Part shown: one piece after another, positions 3,641 through 61,334 of the stretch | How the letters are laid out: every line of letters starts with the position of its first letter | Position numbering within the stretch: position 1 is the first letter of the stretch | NCBI GenBank assembly: GCA_045807865.1 | Contig: JBJMGP010000060.1 | Span: 43,991 to 107,990, forward strand | Reading direction: 5' to 3' | Length of the DNA: 64,000 nucleotides | DNA from: Pyrinomonadaceae bacterium | Lineage (GTDB): Bacteria; Acidobacteriota; Blastocatellia; Pyrinomonadales; Pyrinomonadaceae | Position numbers and translations under genes: made by a program | The notes under the pieces: model-generated | Databases searched by the model: none | Seen by the model: the letters and a program-made list of their open reading frames with translations, nothing else | What the model was told of the DNA's origin: nothing

Positions 3641-4705
3641 TCAGCCGGCGGCGCGGCCGTACTGGATGGGCCAGGGCGCTTCGGCGCCCAGACGCTTCGC
3701 AGCGTGGAGCGGCCAGTATGGGTCGCGCAGCTCCGCGCGCGCGAGGAAGACCGCGTCGGCCTTGCCCGAAGCGATAATCTCCTCGGCCTGCTCCGGCTCG
3801 GTGATGAGGCCGACCGCGCCGGTGGCGACGCCCGCCTCCCTGCGTATCTGCTCCGCGAATCCAACCTGATAGTTCGGCGCGACCGGGATGCGCGCGCCGG
3901 GCACGAGCCCGCCGGTCGAACAGTCGATCAGATCCACCCCGCGCTCCTTCAGCCAGCGCGAGAACTGCACGGACTGCGCCACGTCCCAACCGCCCTCGAC
4001 CCAGTCGGTCGCCGAGATGCGCGCGAAGAGCGGAAGCTCAACGGGCCACACCGCGCGCACGGCCTCGGTCACCATCAACGGAAAGCGCGCCCGGTTCTCA
4101 AGGCTCCCGCCGAACTCATCTTCTCTTCGATTCGAGAGCGGCGAGAGGAACTCGTGCATCAGGTAGCCGTGCGCCATGTGCAGCTCGACGACCTCGAAGC
4201 CCGTCTCCAGCGCGCGGCGCGCGGCCTCTGCGAACTGTAGTGTGACCGTCTCGATGTCGTCCCGCGTCATCTCCCTCGGTGCCGGCCAGTCGCCGAAGGG
4301 CACGGCACTCGGCGCAAACGTCTGCCAGCCGCCCTGCTCCTCGCTCAAGGGCTTCCCGCCGCGCCACGGCACGTCCGTGGAAGCCTTCCGCCCCGCGTGC
4401 GCGAGTTGAATCGCGGCGCGCGCGCCCTGCGACTTGATGAATGACGCGACGGGCGCGAAGGCGCGCGCGTGCGCTTCAGACCAGATGCCCGTGTCGCCCG
4501 GCGAGATGCGCCCCTCGGGCGAGACGCCGGTCGCCTCGACGCAGACGAGCCCGGCGCCGCCGACCGCGCGGCTCCCCAGGTGAACCATGTGCCAGTCGTT
4601 CGGCAGGCCGTCGCGGCTCGAATACTGGCACATCGGCGAGACGAAGACGCGGTTGCGAAACTCGATGCCGCGCAGGCTGTAGGCGGAGAAAAGGCTGCTC
4701 ATCAC
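3641..4705 (-). CDS. namA: NADPH dehydrogenase, Old Yellow Enzyme family (YqjM/NamA type)
   Basis: 354 aa. FRNRVFVSPMCQYSS hallmark of YqjM-class OYE, plus HMAHGYLMHEFLSP and GADAVFLARAELRDPYWP. Confidence 0.8.
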   Translation of the reverse strand: MMSSLFSAYSLRGIEFRNRVFVSPMCQYSSRDGLPNDWHMVHLGSRAVGGAGLVCVEATGVSPEGRISPGDTGIWSEAHARAFAPVASFIKSQGARAAIQLAHAGRKASTDVPWRGGKPLSEEQGGWQTFAPSAVPFGDWPAPREMTRDDIETVTLQFAEAARRALETGFEVVELHMAHGYLMHEFLSPLSNRREDEFGGSLENRARFPLMVTEAVRAVWPVELPLFARISATDWVEGGWDVAQSVQFSRWLKERGVDLIDCSTGGLVPGARIPVAPNYQVGFAEQIRREAGVATGAVGLITEPEQAEEIIASGKADAVFLARAELRDPYWPLHAAKRLGAEAPWPIQYGRAAG

Positions 4706-4760
4706 TCGACCCCTTGTTAGTGTGAAAGATGTGGCCGCATTCTACCCCGCCGGGCTGCGC

Positions 4761-5150
4761 TCAACGAAACACGCCGAACCAGCCGTAGGCACTCATCAAC
4801 TCACCCGCGAGGAAGGAGAGCAGGTTGGCGGCGACGATGGCGGCCATGTCGCGCCAGTTCACGCCGTCGCCTCCCTTCCCGCCGAAGGCCAAATAGAAGA
4901 GCGCGCACTCGGCGGCGGGCGCGAACGTCTCGGCGACGGCGAGGTAGACCCCGCGCGCAGAGTCCGCGAAGAGCGGCGGGAGCACAAGCACGACGACCGG
5001 GTAAGTGCAGGCCGTGAGCCACAGCCCCGCGAAGAGCCTGCGCTTCCGAGTGTGTTGCTTTGAGAGGAAGAGGACGAGGACGGGCGTCTCGACGGCGACC
5101 GTGAACAGGTAGCCGAGCGGGAGGAAGCGCCAGAGGTCTCCGTTGCTCAT
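4761..5150 (-). CDS. small hypothetical membrane protein (about 4 TM)
   Basis: 129 aa, hydrophobic segments, GC3-rich frame. Last gene of a tight three-gene minus-strand operon (6821->4761). Confidence 0.5.
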   Translation of the reverse strand: MSNGDLWRFLPLGYLFTVAVETPVLVLFLSKQHTRKRRLFAGLWLTACTYPVVVLVLPPLFADSARGVYLAVAETFAPAAECALFYLAFGGKGGDGVNWRDMAAIVAANLLSFLAGELMSAYGWFGVFR

Positions 5151-5168
5151 TCGTCGCGCGCCCGAGTA

Positions 5169-6230
5169 TCAGAGCGTCCGCAGGAGGAACGGCACCTCGG
5201 CCAGCACGTGCGCCATCGCGACGGTGAAGTAGAGGTCGCGCGTCGTCGCGTAGTCGGCCGCGAAGCAGAGCCAGAGCAGCAGGACGACGGCGCCCCCCGC
5301 CAGGAGCAGCGCGCGAATCAGCCGCGGCCAGCCCCGCCTGTGTCTCACCAAAGGCACCGACGCAGCACGCCAGGGCGCGAGCCCGACCCCCGCGGCCAGC
5401 GGGACGCCGACGAGCCAGACGCCGTAGTGGAGCGTCTCAAGGAAGACGTGCGTCGAGACGAGCAGGTGCGTCGAGACGAGGTCGGGCACGATGCCTGCGC
5501 CCGCGTGCCGCACGATGCGCAGCGCGACCTCGCCGTCCGACGCGAGCGGCGCCGCGCCCGCGAGTCTCCACCAGAGCACAGCCAGCGCCAGAGGCACCAG
5601 CGCGAGGCAGACGCGGTAGGCGCGACTCCAACCGCGGCGCGTCAGCCGCAACTGCCGGTCTAAAAAGAAGAGTGCGACGAGCGGGTGCACGTAGACGAGC
5701 GCGAGCGCGAACCCCTGCGGCGCGAGCCAGCCCACGCCCACCAACGCGCAGCCCGCGGGCAGCGCCCAGACCCAGCCGCCGCCGCGCGACATCGTCCGCC
5801 CACGCAACACGACGAGCCCCACGACCCACGCGACCGCCGCGCTGTTCCAGAGCGCGGTCGCCGCGTACCAACCCCCCTCGCCCCATACGCCCGAGTCGGC
5901 CCCGAGCGCGAGCAGAGCGTATGCGCCGGTCAAACCGACCACGCCCGCGGCCGCCAGCGCGAAGAAGCCGCGCGAGCGCCCCAGACGTGCGGGCAGTCGC
6001 GTGATGAAGAAGCGCAGCTCCGCCCAGTTGTGCGGCCCCGCGAAGACGAAGACCGTCGCGACCGAAAGCCACAGCGGCGCGAAGCCCGCCAGCGCCGCCG
6101 CCGCGGCCAGCACACACGCGCACGTCAAGCCGAACGCCGCGGGCGAGGCGTTCGACAGAGACGCCCCAGCCCGCGTGACCGCCTCGGCCCGACGCGCGCC
6201 GAGCGCGCCGATCTCTGCGGCGCTCTGCAC
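5169..6230 (-). CDS. hypothetical polytopic membrane protein with conserved-looking His motifs
   Basis: 353 aa, about 9-10 hydrophobic helices. GPHNWAE, YVHP, LETLHY and MAHVLAEVPF motifs. Its start abuts the stop of the upstream gene (6230/6231). Confidence 0.55.
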   Translation of the reverse strand: MQSAAEIGALGARRAEAVTRAGASLSNASPAAFGLTCACVLAAAAALAGFAPLWLSVATVFVFAGPHNWAELRFFITRLPARLGRSRGFFALAAAGVVGLTGAYALLALGADSGVWGEGGWYAATALWNSAAVAWVVGLVVLRGRTMSRGGGWVWALPAGCALVGVGWLAPQGFALALVYVHPLVALFFLDRQLRLTRRGWSRAYRVCLALVPLALAVLWWRLAGAAPLASDGEVALRIVRHAGAGIVPDLVSTHLLVSTHVFLETLHYGVWLVGVPLAAGVGLAPWRAASVPLVRHRRGWPRLIRALLLAGGAVVLLLWLCFAADYATTRDLYFTVAMAHVLAEVPFLLRTL

Positions 6231-55182: not shown

Positions 55183-55518
55183 TCACCCCTCCCCTTCGCG
55201 CTTGCCCCTGACGGAGCCCGCGATCTTCTTGCGCGTCGTCTCGCCCGTGTCGATGACCGGGAGGCCCTCGCCCACTTCGGCGTGCGGGCGCGGGATGACG
55301 TGCGTGGCGACGACCTCGCCGACCCTGCGCGCGGCGGCCGCGCCCGCGTCCACGGCCGCGCGCACCGCGCCCACCTCGCCGCGCACGATGGCCGTCACCA
55401 GACCGGCGTCGATCTTCTCGTAGCCCACCAGGCGCACGTTGGCGGCCTTGACCATCGCGTCCGCGGCCTCGATCATCGCCACCAGCCCGCGGCACTCGAC
55501 CATCCCTAGCGCTTCCAT
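55183..55518 (-). CDS. BMC-H shell protein (PF00936-type hexamer)
   Basis: 111 aa from the ATG at 55518, 6 nt after [66 protein letters not shown]...VIPRPH. Confidence 0.9.
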
Positions 55519-55551
55519 CCCTCTCACCTCCCCGTGCGTTCGGCCGCGCCT

Positions 55552-56079
55552 TCAGCCCGCGCGGCGGTAGACCAGTTTGACCTGCTGCACGCCCATCTGG
55601 TTGCCGATGGTCGTCGTATTCGTCAGGGTCTTCCCGTCGGAGGAGACCTGCCACTTCTGCGCGACGTTGAGTGCGTAAGTCCCGCCCTGCCCCTTCCGCT
55701 CGACGTGTGCCTCGGAGACGACCTTGTCGCCGTCCCACTTCGTCTTCGACTTGATCTCGCCCACGCCGAGCGTCGCCTGATTCGTCTCGCCGCGCTCGTC
55801 CGTGTAGTAGGTGAACTCCTTCACCTCCTCCTGCCCGTTGAGCCTGAGCGTGCGCTTGATTTTCAACTCCGGGTCGCTGTGCGCGATGACGAGCGTCGAG
55901 TCGGCCTTCGACAGTGGCCGCTCGCTGAACTCGCCAAAGTCGCTCTTCGCGCGGTCGATCTGCCACGTCCCCGAAAAGTCCGGGTGCGACTTCTTCTTAC
56001 CATCCCCCGCCACGGCGGCAGAGAGCAGGCACAACGTCAGGAGCAAGGTCAGGAGAGACGCGGGCAGCTGCCTACTCAT
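55552..56079 (-). CDS. hypothetical exported beta-rich (lipocalin-like) protein
   Basis: 175 aa. Signal peptide MSRQLPASLLTLLLTLCLLSAAVAG, followed by an alternating beta-strand pattern. The fold call is tentative. Confidence 0.5.
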   Translation of the reverse strand: MSRQLPASLLTLLLTLCLLSAAVAGDGKKKSHPDFSGTWQIDRAKSDFGEFSERPLSKADSTLVIAHSDPELKIKRTLRLNGQEEVKEFTYYTDERGETNQATLGVGEIKSKTKWDGDKVVSEAHVERKGQGGTYALNVAQKWQVSSDGKTLTNTTTIGNQMGVQQVKLVYRRAG

Positions 56080-56094
56080 CGAACACCTCTCGAA

Positions 56095-57462
56095 TCAGTT
56101 GCGCAGCGAGTGGATGGGCGCGGGGATGCGTCCGCCGCGCCGGATGAAGACGCTCGACGAAAAGGCGTTGACGGGCATGACGGGTGCGCTCCCGAGGAGG
56201 CCGCCGAACTCGACCACGTCGCCGACGACTTTGCCCGGCGCGGGGATGATGCGGACGGCGGTCGTCTTGTTGTTCATGACGCCGATGGCCATCTCGTCGG
56301 CGATGATGGCGGCGATGGTCTCGGCCGAGGTGTCGCCGGGCACGGCCACCATGTCTAAGCCCACGGAGCAGACGCTCGTCATCGCTTCGAGCTTCTCCAG
56401 CGTGAGCGCCCCGAGTTGCGCCGCCTCGATCATGGCGGAGTCTTCGGAGACGGGGATGAAGGCGCCGCTCATCCCGCCGACCGCGCTCGAAGCCATCGCG
56501 CCGCCCTTCTTCACCGCGTCGGTCAGAAGCGCCAGCGCCGCGGTCGTCCCCGGCGCGCCCGCGCGCTCGAACCCCAAAGCTTCGAGAATCTCCCCGACCG
56601 AGTCGCCCGGCGTCGGCGTCGGCGCCAGGGAGAGGTCGATGATGCCGAAGCGCAAACCCAAACGTCTCGCGGCCTCGCGCCCGACCAGTTCGCCGGCGCG
56701 CGCGAGCTTGAAGGAGAGCTTCTTAATCAACTCCGCCATCTCGTCGAGCGGCGCGTCCTGCGGCGCGTGGCGGACGGCGTGGTTGACGACGCCGGGGCCG
56801 GAGACCCCGACGTTGATGACGGCCTCGGGCTCGCCGACGCCGTGGAACGCGCCCGCCATGAAAGGGTTGTCCTCGACCGCGTTGGCGAAGCAGACGAACT
56901 TGGCGCAGGCCAAACCCCCTCGGTCGCGCGTGCGCTCGGCCATCTCCTTGATGATCTCGCCGGTGCGGCGCACGGCGTCCATGTTGATGCCGGCGCGCGT
57001 CGTCGCGAGGCTCAACGAAGAGCAGAGGCGCTCGGTCGCGGCCAGGGCCTCGGGGATGGAATCGACGAAGGCGCGCGTCCCCGGCGTGTCGCCCTTGTGG
57101 ATGAGCGCGGAGTAGCCGCCGATGAAGTCCACGCCGACGCGCTTCGCCGCCTCGTCGATGGCGCGCGCGAGCGGTATCAGTTCCGAAGCGTGGCGCGCGC
57201 GGTCGTAGACGAGCGAGGCGGGCGTGATCGAGATGCGCTTGTTGGCGATGCGCAGGCCCAACTCCTCGCCGATCTCGTCCACCACGGGGACGAGGCGCGC
57301 GGCCGTCCGCTCGATCTTCTCGCGGACGCACTCGGCCGTCTCTTCGACCGTGGCGCGGACGCAGTCGCGGAGAGAGAGCCCGAGCGTGACCGTGCGCACG
57401 TCGAGGTGCTCCATCTCGGTCATGCGCACGGTCTGTAGGATTTCCGCCTGTGTGTACTCCAT
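56095..57462 (-). CDS. UPF0210 / DUF711 family protein (function unknown)
   Basis: 455 aa. Strong family signatures: [101 protein letters not shown]. Confidence 0.85.
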
Positions 57463-57474
57463 GCCCCTCGGGTT

Positions 57475-58038
57475 CTAACGCAAGACGGTCGTGCTTAAGA
57501 AAAGGAGGACGAGGGAGAGGATGAAGAGCGCCGCCGCCACGAGGACGAAGCGCAGGCCCGAGTCGTCCGGCGTCTCTTCGAGGACGACGATGGCCTCCTC
57601 GCGCATCCGCCCGACCCGCGCGCGCGTCCCCTCCCGCACGCGCGCCACGCGGCCCCGGAGGTCGCCCGCCCGCCCCGCGTCATCAGCCTCGGCCGCCGCG
57701 GCCACTTCTGTCGCCGCCCGCGCCGACTCTTCGCGCGACTCCTGCGCGACGGCGACCTGCGCGGCCGGCTCGTCCTCGACGCCCACGTCCTTTATCTCCT
57801 CGGACGTTGGCGGCGGCGGCTCGGCGACGGCCGGTGGCCGCTCGAAGGGCGCGAACTCCTTCGGCGGCGGCGTCCAATCTTTAGTCGTCGGGGCGGCCTG
57901 CTCCTGCGGAGACAACTCGACGGCGGGCGGCGCGTCCTCCGCCTCCAAAGTCTTGCCGCACTGCTGGCAGAAACGCGACCCCGCGCGCGCCGCCGCGCCG
58001 CACGAGAGACACCTGCGAGAGATTTCGGGAAGCGACAT
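57475..58038 (-). CDS. zinc-ribbon protein with acidic linker and C-terminal TM anchor
   Basis: 187 aa. CLSCGAAARAGSRFCQQCG. Tail FVLVAAALFILSLVLLFLSTTVL. Confidence 0.55.
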   Translation of the reverse strand: MSLPEISRRCLSCGAAARAGSRFCQQCGKTLEAEDAPPAVELSPQEQAAPTTKDWTPPPKEFAPFERPPAVAEPPPPTSEEIKDVGVEDEPAAQVAVAQESREESARAATEVAAAAEADDAGRAGDLRGRVARVREGTRARVGRMREEAIVVLEETPDDSGLRFVLVAAALFILSLVLLFLSTTVLR

Positions 58039-58124: not shown

Positions 58125-58568
58125 TCAAATCCTGTGCATCGCGTTGAAGAGGTCTTCGCGCTGGGCGTAGATGTGGACGCCCAGGCGGTCACCCTCGCCG
58201 CGGAAGCGGTCTTTGAGCGCGGCGACCGACTCGCCGGCGCGCGAGATGTCGGCGACGATGACCATCGCGAACTTGCCCTGCACGACCGTCTGGTTGATGT
58301 CGATGATGCTGCAACGCGCCCCGGCCAGAATCTGCGAGACGGCCGCGACGATGCCCGGGTGGTCGGTGCCGAAGACCGAGACGATGAGCCTGTCGGCGCG
58401 CCCCTCGGCCCCGCCCTTCGGCGCGCCGCCCTCGCCCACAGCGAGCGCCGGCTCGATGGCGCGGTACACGTCCATCACCAGCGCCTCGACCGTCCGCTCG
58501 TCGGCCGACGCCCCCAGGCGGCCGTAGACGGCGCGCGTGATGCGGTAGATGAGTTCCTCGTTCGCCAT
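58125..58568 (-). CDS. ACT-domain protein of the UPF0237 family with about 58-aa N-terminal extension
   Basis: 147 aa from the ATG at 58568. ACT core LIVSVFGTDHPGIVAAVSQILAGARCSIIDINQTVVQGKFAMVIVADIS...LFNAMHRI. Extension MANEELIYRITRAVYGRLGASADERTVEALVMDVYRAIEPALAVGEGGAPKGGAEG. Confidence 0.8.
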   Translation of the reverse strand: MANEELIYRITRAVYGRLGASADERTVEALVMDVYRAIEPALAVGEGGAPKGGAEGRADRLIVSVFGTDHPGIVAAVSQILAGARCSIIDINQTVVQGKFAMVIVADISRAGESVAALKDRFRGEGDRLGVHIYAQREDLFNAMHRI

Positions 58569-58579
58569 CCTGTGTACGG

Positions 58580-58906
58580 TCAGCGCCCGCGGCGCAGCTC
58601 GCGCGACGCCTCGATCAACTCGTCGGAGCGCGCGAGGTCTTCCTGCACGTCCACGCGGTCGACGATGCCGACGACCGCGGCCTCGATGGCCATCTCCTGG
58701 TCGCCGACGGCCGTGCGCGCGGCCTTCCCGTACGCGCACATCACGACCTCGCCCACGCCCGCGCCCAGACGGTCGGCCACGACGACGATATTCTTCGTCG
58801 GCTCCTTATCGAGGTCAATCGGATGCACGACCAAAAATCTGACGCCCTCCAGGTCGGGCGTCTTCTTGGTTGACCAAACGGTGCCGACGACTTTGCCTAA
58901 GAACAT
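58580..58906 (-). CDS. BMC-P pentameric vertex protein (EutN/CcmL family)
   Basis: 108 aa. MFLGKVVGTVWSTKK...LVVHPIDL...VVADRLGAGVGEVVMCAYGKAAR. Confidence 0.9.
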   Translation of the reverse strand: MFLGKVVGTVWSTKKTPDLEGVRFLVVHPIDLDKEPTKNIVVVADRLGAGVGEVVMCAYGKAARTAVGDQEMAIEAAVVGIVDRVDVQEDLARSDELIEASRELRRGR

Positions 58907-58989
58907 AAAGACCGTGAACCGTGAACCGTAAGCCGTGACGAGAGGGAAGACAGTTTTTATCTTGTCACGGTTTACGGTTCACGGTCTTT
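58907..58989. repeat. heptamer-armed hairpin, CGTGAAC/CGTAAGC family, filling the whole AldDH-to-BMC-P intergenic space
   Basis: aaagaccgtgaaccgtgaaccgtaagccgtgac - gagagggaagacagtttttatcttg - gtcacggtttacggttcacggtcttt. It abuts the BMC-P ATG (58904-58906) and overlaps the AldDH stop (58989-58991). Confidence 0.9.
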
Positions 58990-60839
58990 CATGCTTTCGC
59001 GAAGACCTCCGCGGCCTCGCCCATGTCGCGTGCGGCGGGCGTGATGATGGTGCGCGCGTTGGTGTAGATCTTCTCGCCCTTCTGGATGGCGCGGCGCACG
59101 TCGTCCTCGCAGACGAAGTCCACCGCGCGCTTGCCGTTGCCGGCCGCGGGGGAGGGCGTCTGCTTCGTGGGCGCCGGCGCGGTCGGCGCGGGCTGTGCGT
59201 GGCCGTTGCCGCCGTTCGTGGCCTGCGCGGTCGGCGCCGCCTCCGGGTGCGGGGCGGCGCCGCCGGAGTGCGCGGCGCGCTGCGGCTCCACATCCACCTC
59301 CTGCTGCACGTAGGCGTGCGGCTGCGCGACGGGGAGCGGCTGCGACGTGGCCTGTGCCGGCTGGCGTTGCGAGAGGAAGCGGTCAACTATCTTCGCGATG
59401 TCGTCGCGGCTGACGGCGCCGGCCGCGGCGGGCGCGGGCTGCAAAGGAGAAGCGGACGGCCGTGTTTGCACCGCGCGCGCGGGCCTCTTGCTCGGGACGG
59501 CGCGCGTCTCGAACGCGACGCGCTTGATGTCCATCAGGTGCCAGGGCGAGACGTTGTCCGAGGTGACGTTGCCGCCCCAAGAGCCGCAGCCCAGAGTCAT
59601 CGAGGGCGGCAGGGCGGTCGAGAAGCCGATGGCGCCATGCGTCGTCGGCGAGTTGACGACGATGCGCGAGGCGGGCATCTCGATGCCGAACGCCTGCGCG
59701 GCCTCGCGCGAGCGCGTGTGGATGCCGGCGGTGTGACCCATGCCGCCGTAGCTCAGGATTTCAAAGCAGCGCGCGGCGCCTCTCTCCAGACCGTCTTCGA
59801 CGTAGAAGGCGAGGATGGGCGAGAGCTTCTCCATCGAGAGCGGGAACGCGCGCCCGACGCCCCCGACCTCCGCCATGAGGCAGCGTGTGCCCGGCGGGAC
59901 GGTCAGCCCGGCCATCTTCGCAATCACCTCGACCGAGCGACCGACGATGGCCGGGTTGAGCGCGCGCTTCTCGGTCGTGACGACCTTGGCCAACTGGTCG
60001 GCCTCCGCGGCCGAGAGGAAGTGCGCGCCCTGCGCGACGAACTCTTCCCTCACCTGCTTCGCGACGGGCGCGTCGGCGACGACCGCCTGCTCGGAGGCGC
60101 AGATGGTGCCGTTATCAAAGGTCTTCCCCGTCAGGATGTTCTGCACGGCGATGGGCACGTCGGCGCTTCTCTCGACGAAGACGGGGACGTTGCCAGGCCC
60201 GACGCCGAAGGCGGGCTTGCCCGAAGAGTAGGCCGCGCGCACCAGCCCGATGCCGCCGGTGGCGAGGATGACCGCCGTCTGGCGGTGCTTCATCAAAGCC
60301 TCGGTGCCTTCGAGCGACGTGCTCGTCATGCAGCCGATGGCCTCGGCGGGCAGACCTTCCTTGACTCCCGCCTCGCGCATGACGCGCGCCGTCTCGTTGA
60401 TGCACCTGGCGGCCGAAGGGTGCGGCGAGAGGACGATGGCGTTGCGGGACTTGACGGCGATGAGGATTTTAAAGATGGCCGTGGAGGTCGGGTTGGTCGA
60501 GGGGATGATGCCGGCGACGACGCCGCGCGGGCTGGCGATCTCAAGCACGTCCTTCGACTCGTTGATGACGCCGACCGTGCGCAGCCCACGGAAGTAGTTC
60601 CACACGTCCTCGGCGGCGAAGCGGTTCTTCTCGCGCTTGTCGTCGGGGATGCCGTAGCCCGTCTCCTCGGTCGCCAGCGCGCCCAGACGCGCCGCGTCGC
60701 GCAGGGCCGCCCGCGCCATCGCCTCGCAGACGCGGTCGATCTTCGCCTGGTCGAAGCGCGCGAGCACCCCTTGCGCCCGGTGCGCCGCCTCGACGAGGTC
60801 GCGCGCCTGCTGTACGGATACTAAATCCTTATCCGCCAT
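58989..60839 (-). CDS. CoA-acylating aldehyde dehydrogenase (EutE/PduP-like) with about 170-aa C-terminal extension
   Basis: 616 aa. [10 protein letters not shown], catalytic Cys context [20 protein letters not shown]. Pro/Ala-rich tail containing [17 protein letters not shown] and a terminal module [40 protein letters not shown]. Confidence 0.9.
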
Positions 60840-60854: not shown

Positions 60855-60931
60855 CGTGAACCGTGAACCGTAAATCGTGACCAGTGAAAAGGCAGTCCTT
60901 TCCCGTCACGGTTTACGGTTCACGGTTTACG
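60855..60931. repeat. heptamer-armed hairpin, CGTGAAC/CGTAAAC family
   Basis: cgtgaaccgtgaaccgtaaatcgtgac - cagtgaaaaggcagtcctttccc - gtcacggtttacggttcacggtttacg. The TAA stop of the upstream BMC-H gene (60927-60929) lies inside the right arm. Confidence 0.9.
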
Positions 60932-61334
60932 ACTTATTTCTCTCCTTGCTGTTATCGCGCTGGCCGGCGGGGAGCGAGCGGCCCTGTTCGCCTTCGCCGA
61001 GGGCGCCGGCCGAGCCGCCGCCGCCGACGGCGCGCTCGTCGGGGCTGTAGCCGGTGCGGCCGTTGCGCGGGAGCACGCGCTCGACCTCGCCGTGCGGGCG
61101 CGGGATGACGTGGACGCTGATCAGCTCGCCCACGCGCCGCGCCGCGGCCGCGCCCGCGTCCGTCGCCGCCTTGACCGCGCCCACGTCGCCGCGCACGAAG
61201 ATCGTGACGTAGCCGGCGCCGATATACTCCTTGCCGATGAGAGTGACGTTGGCCGCCTTGACCATCGCGTCCGCGGCCTCGACCGCGCCCACGAAGCCCT
61301 TGGTCTCGACCATTCCGAGTGCTTCCAGAGGCAT
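60927..61334 (-). CDS. BMC-H shell protein (PF00936-type hexamer) with Gly/charged C-terminal tail
   Basis: 135 aa. [61 protein letters not shown]...VIPRPH. Confidence 0.9.

Follow-up and report, generated by a model that had tools for sequence, protein, structure and literature searches.

Classic encapsulation peptides (EPs) of bacterial microcompartments (BMCs) consist of a single short helix with little sequence conservation, and large subunits that carry no such tag, EutB and PduC (PduCE), are carried in by the tagged small subunits EutC and PduD. The present work concerns a stretch of 64,000 nucleotides (hereafter the window) from a Pyrinomonadaceae bacterium (contig JBJMGP010000060.1, positions 43,991 to 107,990), which contains a gene for an N-terminally extended ACT protein of the UPF0237 type. 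This gene lies in the aldehyde dehydrogenase (AldDH) satellite locus of an acidobacterial microcompartment of the ACI type, together with a gene for DUF711 (UPF0210). DUF711/UPF0210 proteins are the conserved genomic partner of UPF0237 proteins; the gene pair is widespread, its structures are about twenty years old and, to our knowledge, its function is still not known. As described below, the extension most likely represents a tag that would recruit ACT and DUF711 into the organelle, as EutC does for EutB.

In the ACI type, the AldDH gene is located on a satellite locus with a fourth BMC-P gene and a BMC-H gene (Sutter et al. 2021, PMC8217296). In the account of ACI given there, ACT, DUF711 and an encapsulation peptide on ACT all go unmentioned, and DUF711 (pfam05167) is not a locus component anywhere in that paper or its supplements (PMC8217296). 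An ACT hidden Markov model (HMM) is named for ACI and MIC3 in the HMM table of the same catalogue, which already counts ACT among the locus components of ACI/MIC3 and of FRAG4, without discussion (PMC8217296). In FRAG4, found in Candidatus Marinimicrobia, a C-terminal ACT domain of about 90 aa follows a microcompartment-specific N-terminal region for which the authors reported no homology, and the shell genes are scattered (PMC8217296 Supplementary Data 2). Our literature searches for DUF711 or ACT in connection with microcompartments returned nothing beyond this 2021 catalogue (PMC8217296). While encapsulation peptides themselves are a well-known principle, an EP-type tag on this cargo has not previously been discussed.

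The N-terminal extension of the ACT protein

The ACT gene and the parts of its product are located as follows:

58125..58568, minus strand: N-terminally extended UPF0237-type ACT gene, 147 aa plus stop codon, ATG start (open reading frame, ORF, and translation)
58395-58568, minus strand: N-terminal extension, residues 1-58, corresponding exactly to codons 1-58
58515..58565, minus strand: helix 1, residues 2-18, ANEELIYRITRAVYGRL, amphipathic (AlphaFold2 model, hydrophobic moment and ratio of nonsynonymous to synonymous substitution rates, dN/dS)
58500..58514, minus strand: turn, residues 19-23, GASAD, non-helical in the AlphaFold2 model (also from the alignments)
58437..58499, minus strand: helix 2, residues 24-44, ERTVEALVMDVYRAIEPALAV, amphipathic (AlphaFold2 model, hydrophobic moment, dN/dS)
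58395..58436, minus strand: Gly/Ala/Pro linker, residues 45-58, flexible (low predicted local distance difference test score, pLDDT; indels; dN/dS)
58128..58394, minus strand: ACT core, residues 59-147, beta-alpha-beta-beta-alpha-beta plus a C-terminal helix (Pfam, 1ZPV, AlphaFold2 model)

The initial annotation of this region had reported about 58 extra N-terminal residues, and its coordinates and quoted peptide proved correct to the letter. These residues are real, since 1ZPV, Pfam and the canonical relatives cover the ACT core only. The Pfam family ACT_6 (PF13740) matches residues 60-133 only (E=2e-15; score 56.8 bits, curated cut-off 23). A search through 1.84 billion representative proteins yielded canonical relatives of 89-98 aa whose alignments begin at query residue 58-60; the tag is absent from many representatives of about 90 aa. 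Among close relatives, a structure has been solved only for PDB 1ZPV (SP_0238, a UPF0237 protein of 91 aa from Streptococcus pneumoniae), which differs in having no N-terminal extension; it aligns with residues 58-147 alone at 36% identity (Foldseek E=4e-7, template modelling score 0.85 normalised to the target, root-mean-square deviation (rmsd) 2.0 Å).

More than 100 full-length Pyrinomonadaceae orthologues, of 141-150 aa, cover the query completely at 84-98% identity. In orthologues from five acidobacterial families the ATG is conserved, an in-frame stop is often located 0-2 codons upstream, and many ACT orthologues have a good Shine-Dalgarno sequence of the GGAGG or AAGG type before it. In the window, the ATG lies 11 nt after the stop codon of the BMC-P gene, and no ATG, GTG or TTG codon is present immediately 5' of the ACT core. 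It could be argued that the extension is an annotation artefact, with the real start near the ACT core and the upstream frame non-coding or a leader, because the ATG at 58568 is preceded by only a weak Shine-Dalgarno sequence (ACAGG) and long spurious open frames arise in high-GC genomes. This explanation is effectively refuted by the conserved ATG and its close upstream stops, by the lack of an alternative start codon before the core, by the homology of the extension in three phyla and by the dN/dS of 0.04-0.2 across the helices; the downstream start against which the initial annotation had cautioned was thus not borne out. The extension is judged to be translated and its start codon to be secure.

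An AlphaFold2 model of the ACT protein, built on an alignment of 22 sequences, places helices at residues 2-18 and 24-44 (pLDDT about 87), a disordered linker at residues 46-56 (pLDDT <50) and an ACT core of pLDDT about 97. Both helices are amphipathic, in agreement with the two segments of hydrophobic periodicity noted in the initial annotation: the hydrophobic moment of helix 1 peaks at 0.77 (residues 4-14), while that of helix 2 is 0.5-0.6, with a peak of 0.60. The N-termini of EutC (MDQKQIEEIVRSVMASMGQ...) and EutE (MNQQDIEQVVKAVLLKMQS...) of E. coli K-12 were used as yardsticks and gave 0.79 and 0.61, respectively; in the same organism as the ACT gene, the C-terminal EP of an aldolase gave 0.74 and the EP of the AldDH 0.83.

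The spacing PHI-xx-PHI-PHI-xx-PHI-PHI-xx-PHI of hydrophobic positions is found at ACT residues 7-18 (I..IT..VY..L, then G) and again at 27-38 (V..LV..VY..I), and the same spacing starts at residue 6 of both EutC and EutE of E. coli K-12. In particular, the register of helix 1, I7-xx-I10,T11-xx-V14,Y15-xx-L18, is that of EutC, I6-xx-I9,V10-xx-V13,M14-xx-M17; this match to EutC/EutE is supporting evidence only. The pattern occurs twice within the first 45 residues in 0.2% of the large ORFs of the genome. Residue G19, which gives the turn its 'LG' motif, hardly varies across phyla: it is nearly invariant in alignment A2, and is G or P in alignment A1.

A reading of the extension as a NikR-like ribbon-helix-helix DNA-binding module was also considered and rejected. 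In such regulators a beta-strand comes before the two helices of a DNA-binding dimer, whereas here helix 1 begins at residue 2 and no strand precedes it. The extension also has a net acidic charge, and the fold matches to NikR, with an rmsd of about 11 Å, carry no meaning.

Selection along the protein was estimated as dN/dS from 79 orthologues, with residues 24-42 as the helix 2 bin. Helix 1 (residues 2-18) had a value of 0.038 and helix 2 one of 0.195, with 0.29 for the turn between them, while the ACT core gave 0.142 and the linker 0.615; purifying selection acts more strongly on helix 1 than on the core and hardly at all on the linker. All 21 indel columns of the 79-sequence alignment, in which protein lengths range from 142 to 164 aa, fall within the linker. 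The segment that had been described as a flexible Gly/Ala/Pro linker therefore appears flexible by its low pLDDT, its dN/dS and its indels alike. The likeness to encapsulation peptides put forward in the initial annotation implies features that could be examined here at the sequence level, namely an amphipathic helix, a fast-evolving linker and the EutC/EutE spacing, and all of these were found. Helix 1 is the best candidate for an encapsulation helix that binds the shell or the core.

Distribution of the extension and its genomic context

BMC-H genes were detected in 210 of 401 genomes of Acidobacteriota (52%). In this phylum, a UPF0237-type ACT occurs in 45 genomes of five families; it is extended in 45/45, and 45/45 have BMC-H (Fisher p=2e-14). 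In the phylum of genome G401, shell genes are present in all 42 genomes that encode ACT, compared with 96/285 genomes overall (34%; p=8e-24), and in the phylum of genome G402 shell genes accompany the tagged ACT in 16/16 genomes, where the base rate is 20/20 (100%). No tagged ACT, the contrary case named in the initial annotation, was found in a shell-less genome among these 103 genomes of three phyla, counts that lack phylogenetic independence and come down to a handful of families or lineages. As judged from the search of representative proteins, the helix-LG-helix-linker-ACT form is a homologous subfamily across the three phyla.

The linkage of the tagged gene to shell genes varies. In families f1 and f22, ACT and DUF711 form part of an AldDH/BMC-H locus. 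One locus from the phylum of G401 has the order BMC-T, BMC-P, PduS-like, BMC-T, ACT, unknown gene, DUF711, and ACT stands just beside a tandem-BMC gene in most genomes with listed coordinates. In families f4, f23 and f65, no shell gene occurs within 8 kb of the ACT gene, which keeps its extension all the same. In G402, neither shell genes nor DUF711 are found close to the tagged ACT, and the genome has its shell genes on other contigs; among the 20 genomes of its phylum, the tagged ACT is present in 16, DUF711 in 17 and shell genes in 20, mutually unlinked (e.g. G402 C7, C4, C12, C16), which looks like a fragmented (FRAG) microcompartment type. The initial annotation had raised the question whether the extension occurs only in microcompartment-linked copies. 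This holds for the genome, which always has shell genes, and fails for the position of the gene, which is far from shell genes in several families.

The orthologous DUF711 clade is also present in two shell-less acidobacterial genomes, G311 and G360, both devoid of BMC-H. In G311, the ACT protein has 86 aa and no tag, and a stop codon lies three codons upstream of its start. In G360, the partner of DUF711 is a tandem-ACT protein of about 190 aa, also without the tag. The tandem-ACT gene of G360 (locus L157, 3739-4335, plus strand) is located directly upstream of DUF711 (4332-5711, plus strand), with an overlap of 4 nt.

These distributions bear on the possibility that the extension is unrelated to microcompartments, serves oligomerisation or regulation as an add-on in a single UPF0237 subfamily, and co-occurs with shell genes through shared ancestry. 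The absence of any exception in 103 genomes of three phyla speaks against it, as do the orthologous DUF711 without an extension in both shell-less acidobacteria and the position of the gene between shell genes in three separate lineages. Moreover, ACT was independently recovered as a recurrent component of ACI/MIC3 and FRAG4 in the 2021 catalogue (PMC8217296). Shared ancestry would nevertheless fit the ACT genes of f4, f23, f65 and the G402 phylum, none of which has a shell gene within 8-10 kb. In the three phyla, shell genes are in any case frequent (52%, 34% and 100% of genomes), and the independent events number a handful of families rather than about a hundred genomes. On balance, we regard an unrelated add-on as very unlikely.

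In the window, the ACT gene belongs to an operon with the order BMC-H, AldDH, BMC-P, ACT, zinc ribbon, DUF711, 175-aa protein, BMC-H. The other members are:

60927..61334, minus strand: BMC-H, head of the operon (Pfam PF00936, E=4e-29)
58989..60839, minus strand: aldehyde dehydrogenase with a long C-terminal tail (Pfam Aldedh)
59367-59414, minus strand: EP-like helix of the AldDH, residues 476-491 (hydrophobic moment 0.83)
58992-59126, minus strand: terminal module of the AldDH, about 45 aa, in its tail
58580..58906, minus strand: BMC-P (EutN/CcmL) vertex gene, directly upstream of ACT (Pfam PF03319, E=5e-29)
57475..58038, minus strand: zinc-ribbon protein with a C-terminal hydrophobic segment, between ACT and DUF711 (weak zinc-ribbon Pfam matches)
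56095..57462, minus strand: DUF711/UPF0210, 455 aa, presumed partner of ACT (Pfam PF05167, E=6e-182)
55552..56079, minus strand: 175-aa ORF, located between DUF711 and the last BMC-H, N-terminus resembling a signal peptide (no Pfam match)
55183..55527, minus strand: second BMC-H, tail of the operon (Pfam PF00936, E=2e-30)

DUF711 thus lies 660 nt downstream of ACT, with one small gene in between, and the source genome contains a single ACT/DUF711 pair. Related loci were searched for in genome contigs, and the best 80, all from Pyrinomonadaceae, were used for synteny and dN/dS. The order BMC-H, AldDH, BMC-P, ACT, zinc ribbon, DUF711, BMC-H is kept across these 80 Pyrinomonadaceae genomes, contig truncations aside, and the operon order of the window also occurs in locus L133. 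In family f22 the order is BMC-H, AldDH, ACT, DUF711. ACT and DUF711 are directly adjacent in f22, f23, f65 and f33, and in one of the two f4 genomes examined.

The slot between ACT and DUF711 is occupied by the zinc-ribbon gene in nearly all of the 80 Pyrinomonadaceae loci, and this gene is not found there in other acidobacterial families. In the phylum of G401 the same slot holds an unrelated 245-aa ORF (L131 4921-5658) with no Pfam match. Fewer than half of the 80 related loci contain the 175-aa ORF (55552-56079).

The window compares well with the ACI satellite locus, which also carries an AldDH with an EP near its C-terminus followed by a domain of about 50 aa, a BMC-P and a BMC-H (PMC8217296 Supplementary Data 2). 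The source names of close homologues are Acidobacteria and Pyrinomonadaceae, as for ACI. The main locus of ACI is characterised by a class II aldolase with a C-terminal EP, a BMC-H and a BMC-P triplet. Its counterpart here is a second shell locus on another contig, C96 (about 55.7-59.7 kb), which comprises an aldolase-like ORF, a BMC-H gene and three BMC-P genes. The aldolase-like ORF ends with an EP-like helix (...LTREELIELLSQAARVAR), an assignment made from sequence and locus position.

The main locus on contig C96 also encodes, at 59173-59631 on the plus strand, a 152-aa protein whose N-terminal helices are strongly amphipathic (hydrophobic moment 0.82) and which has a cysteine cluster, CTLEPGDKPCDHCGQC, at its C-terminus. 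This protein is probably the equivalent of the small Cys protein of ACI, for which an N-terminal EP has been described, and is about twice as long as the approximately 80 aa stated there (PMC8217296).

Several Pyrinomonadaceae genomes of genera g3, g6 and g8 (G077, G113, G125, G171 and others) have three BMC-H genes, no ACT and no DUF711, indicating that the ACT/DUF711 pair is an accessory rather than a core module of ACI. Neither is the pair intrinsically a microcompartment module, since DUF711 is also encoded by five shell-less control genomes (C. glutamicum, L. lactis, M. jannaschii, S. acidocaldarius and M. acetivorans); that description fits the tagged subfamily alone. DUF711 of the window aligns end to end with PDB 2HA9 (UPF0210 protein SP_0239 of Streptococcus pneumoniae), residues 7-455 to residues 6-446, and therefore carries no terminal extension, as had been stated in the initial annotation.

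A second, divergent DUF711 clade was found in Acidobacteriota (E of about 1e-58 to 1e-88, profile positions 6-406), in genomes G014, G075, G119, G147, G229, G230, G239, G259, G279, G315, G384 and G398. No UPF0237 partner was detectable for this clade, and at least one of its genomes is shell-less; the clade probably represents a paralogous subfamily. Furthermore, a third class of UPF0237-like ACT proteins (P0184, P0195, P0204, P0228) bears a different N-terminal module of about 45 aa, ..IIT.D.I......G...L.LP.G.VIT..A..WA...G, which by eye resembles the terminal module of the window AldDH (58992-59126). This resemblance is unproven, because an HMM built from the four sequences did not match the AldDH tail and its best match in the genome had E=0.37. 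Pfam contains no family for this module, nor for the tag module.

A putative targeting tag and its alternatives

We propose that the first 45 or so residues of the ACT protein form a microcompartment-association tag, consisting of two amphipathic helices with a conserved Leu-Gly turn and tethered by a disordered linker of variable length to an otherwise ordinary UPF0237 ACT domain. The tag would work like the N-terminal EPs of EutC, EutE, PduD and PduP. Its hydrophobic face would dock on the lumenal side of shell proteins, or on the condensing cargo core, during ACI assembly, and the ACT protein would end up inside the microcompartment. The untagged DUF711 would be co-encapsulated within an ACT-DUF711 complex, as EutB and PduC are with EutC and PduD. 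We infer the binding to shell or core, the ACT-DUF711 complex and the lumenal location.

Several observations weigh against this proposal, in addition to the unlinked ACT genes of f4, f23, f65 and G402 and the limited independence of the co-occurrence counts. The register pattern shared with EutC was defined post hoc, and 9% of the large ORFs of the genome have it once within their first 45 residues. The aldolase and AldDH EPs of the organism itself have a different register, so that the pattern is no universal EP signature. The tag is a conserved two-helix hairpin, homologous across phyla and predicted with a pLDDT of about 87, and in this it is more domain-like than classic EPs; such a hairpin could pack on itself and bury its hydrophobic faces. 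When a profile of the tag (A1, columns 1-43) was run against all six-frame ORFs of the genome, only ACT was matched (E=1.5e-18), the next match having E=1, and the tag is accordingly not a module common to other cargo of this genome. Finally, the physical complex of ACT and DUF711 is assumed solely from gene adjacency.

The domain-like character of the hairpin raises the possibility of a folded two-helix adaptor that is linked to microcompartments and binds one specific partner, rather than a lumen-targeting peptide. Candidate partners are a PduT-like tandem shell protein, approached from the cytosolic side, the AldDH or an assembly factor. Through metabolite sensing by its ACT domain, such a protein could control enzyme activity or the assembly or permeability of the organelle. 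ACT domains are indeed typically regulatory ligand sensors (PMC8217296 Supplementary Data 2; also established knowledge). The fairly confident prediction of the hairpin with its conserved LG turn, the homology of the module in three phyla and the position of ACT beside a tandem-BMC gene in the G401 phylum would all suit an adaptor, and the stronger constraint on helix 1 than on the ACT core is what a specific protein-protein interface would produce. A role specific to PduT is not general, however, since no tandem-BMC gene adjoins ACT in the Pyrinomonadaceae loci. The helix register, moreover, is that of validated encapsulation peptides, a long disordered tether is typical of cargo tags, and DUF711 looks like an enzyme, which fits cargo. 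An adaptor of this kind is the main alternative, though in our view an unlikely one.

A broader version of the recruitment proposal would make ACT and DUF711 the missing signature module of ACI, MIC3-like and FRAG-like microcompartments. The module would produce an aldehyde or another reactive intermediate for the co-encoded acylating AldDH, and ACT would act as both ligand sensor and targeting subunit. We offer this scheme as a speculation that is rather unlikely to hold in full.

If one subfamily of the pair is microcompartment cargo, its DUF711 probably handles a volatile or toxic intermediate. Recruitment of the pair would then provide a concrete candidate for the chemistry of ACI organelles, and likewise for that of fragmented microcompartments known from their shell genes only. 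In Acidobacteriota, a phylum dominant in soils, about half of the members sampled have BMC-H genes and ACI-type organelles. If the proposal is correct, the conserved two-helix tag might also serve as a targeting device for engineered shells.

Comparison with known systems

The proposed tag differs from classic EPs in three respects. It has two tandem helices with a conserved LG turn instead of one helix; it is homologous in sequence across phyla; and it is attached to a ligand-binding ACT domain instead of an enzyme subunit of known function. The FRAG4 ACT of Candidatus Marinimicrobia resembles the unlinked arrangement in the phylum of G402, a comparison made by description only.

In other respects, the ACT tag is similar to the EPs of EutC (residues 1-19), EutE (residues 1-19), PduD and PduP, in which a terminal amphipathic helix is likewise followed by a flexible linker. 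With EutC of E. coli K-12 it also shares the PHI spacing that ends in a glycine. Like classic EPs, it is missing from homologues that are unconnected with microcompartments. As in the pairs EutC/EutB and PduD/PduC, the tag is borne by the small subunit, and the large partner is untagged.

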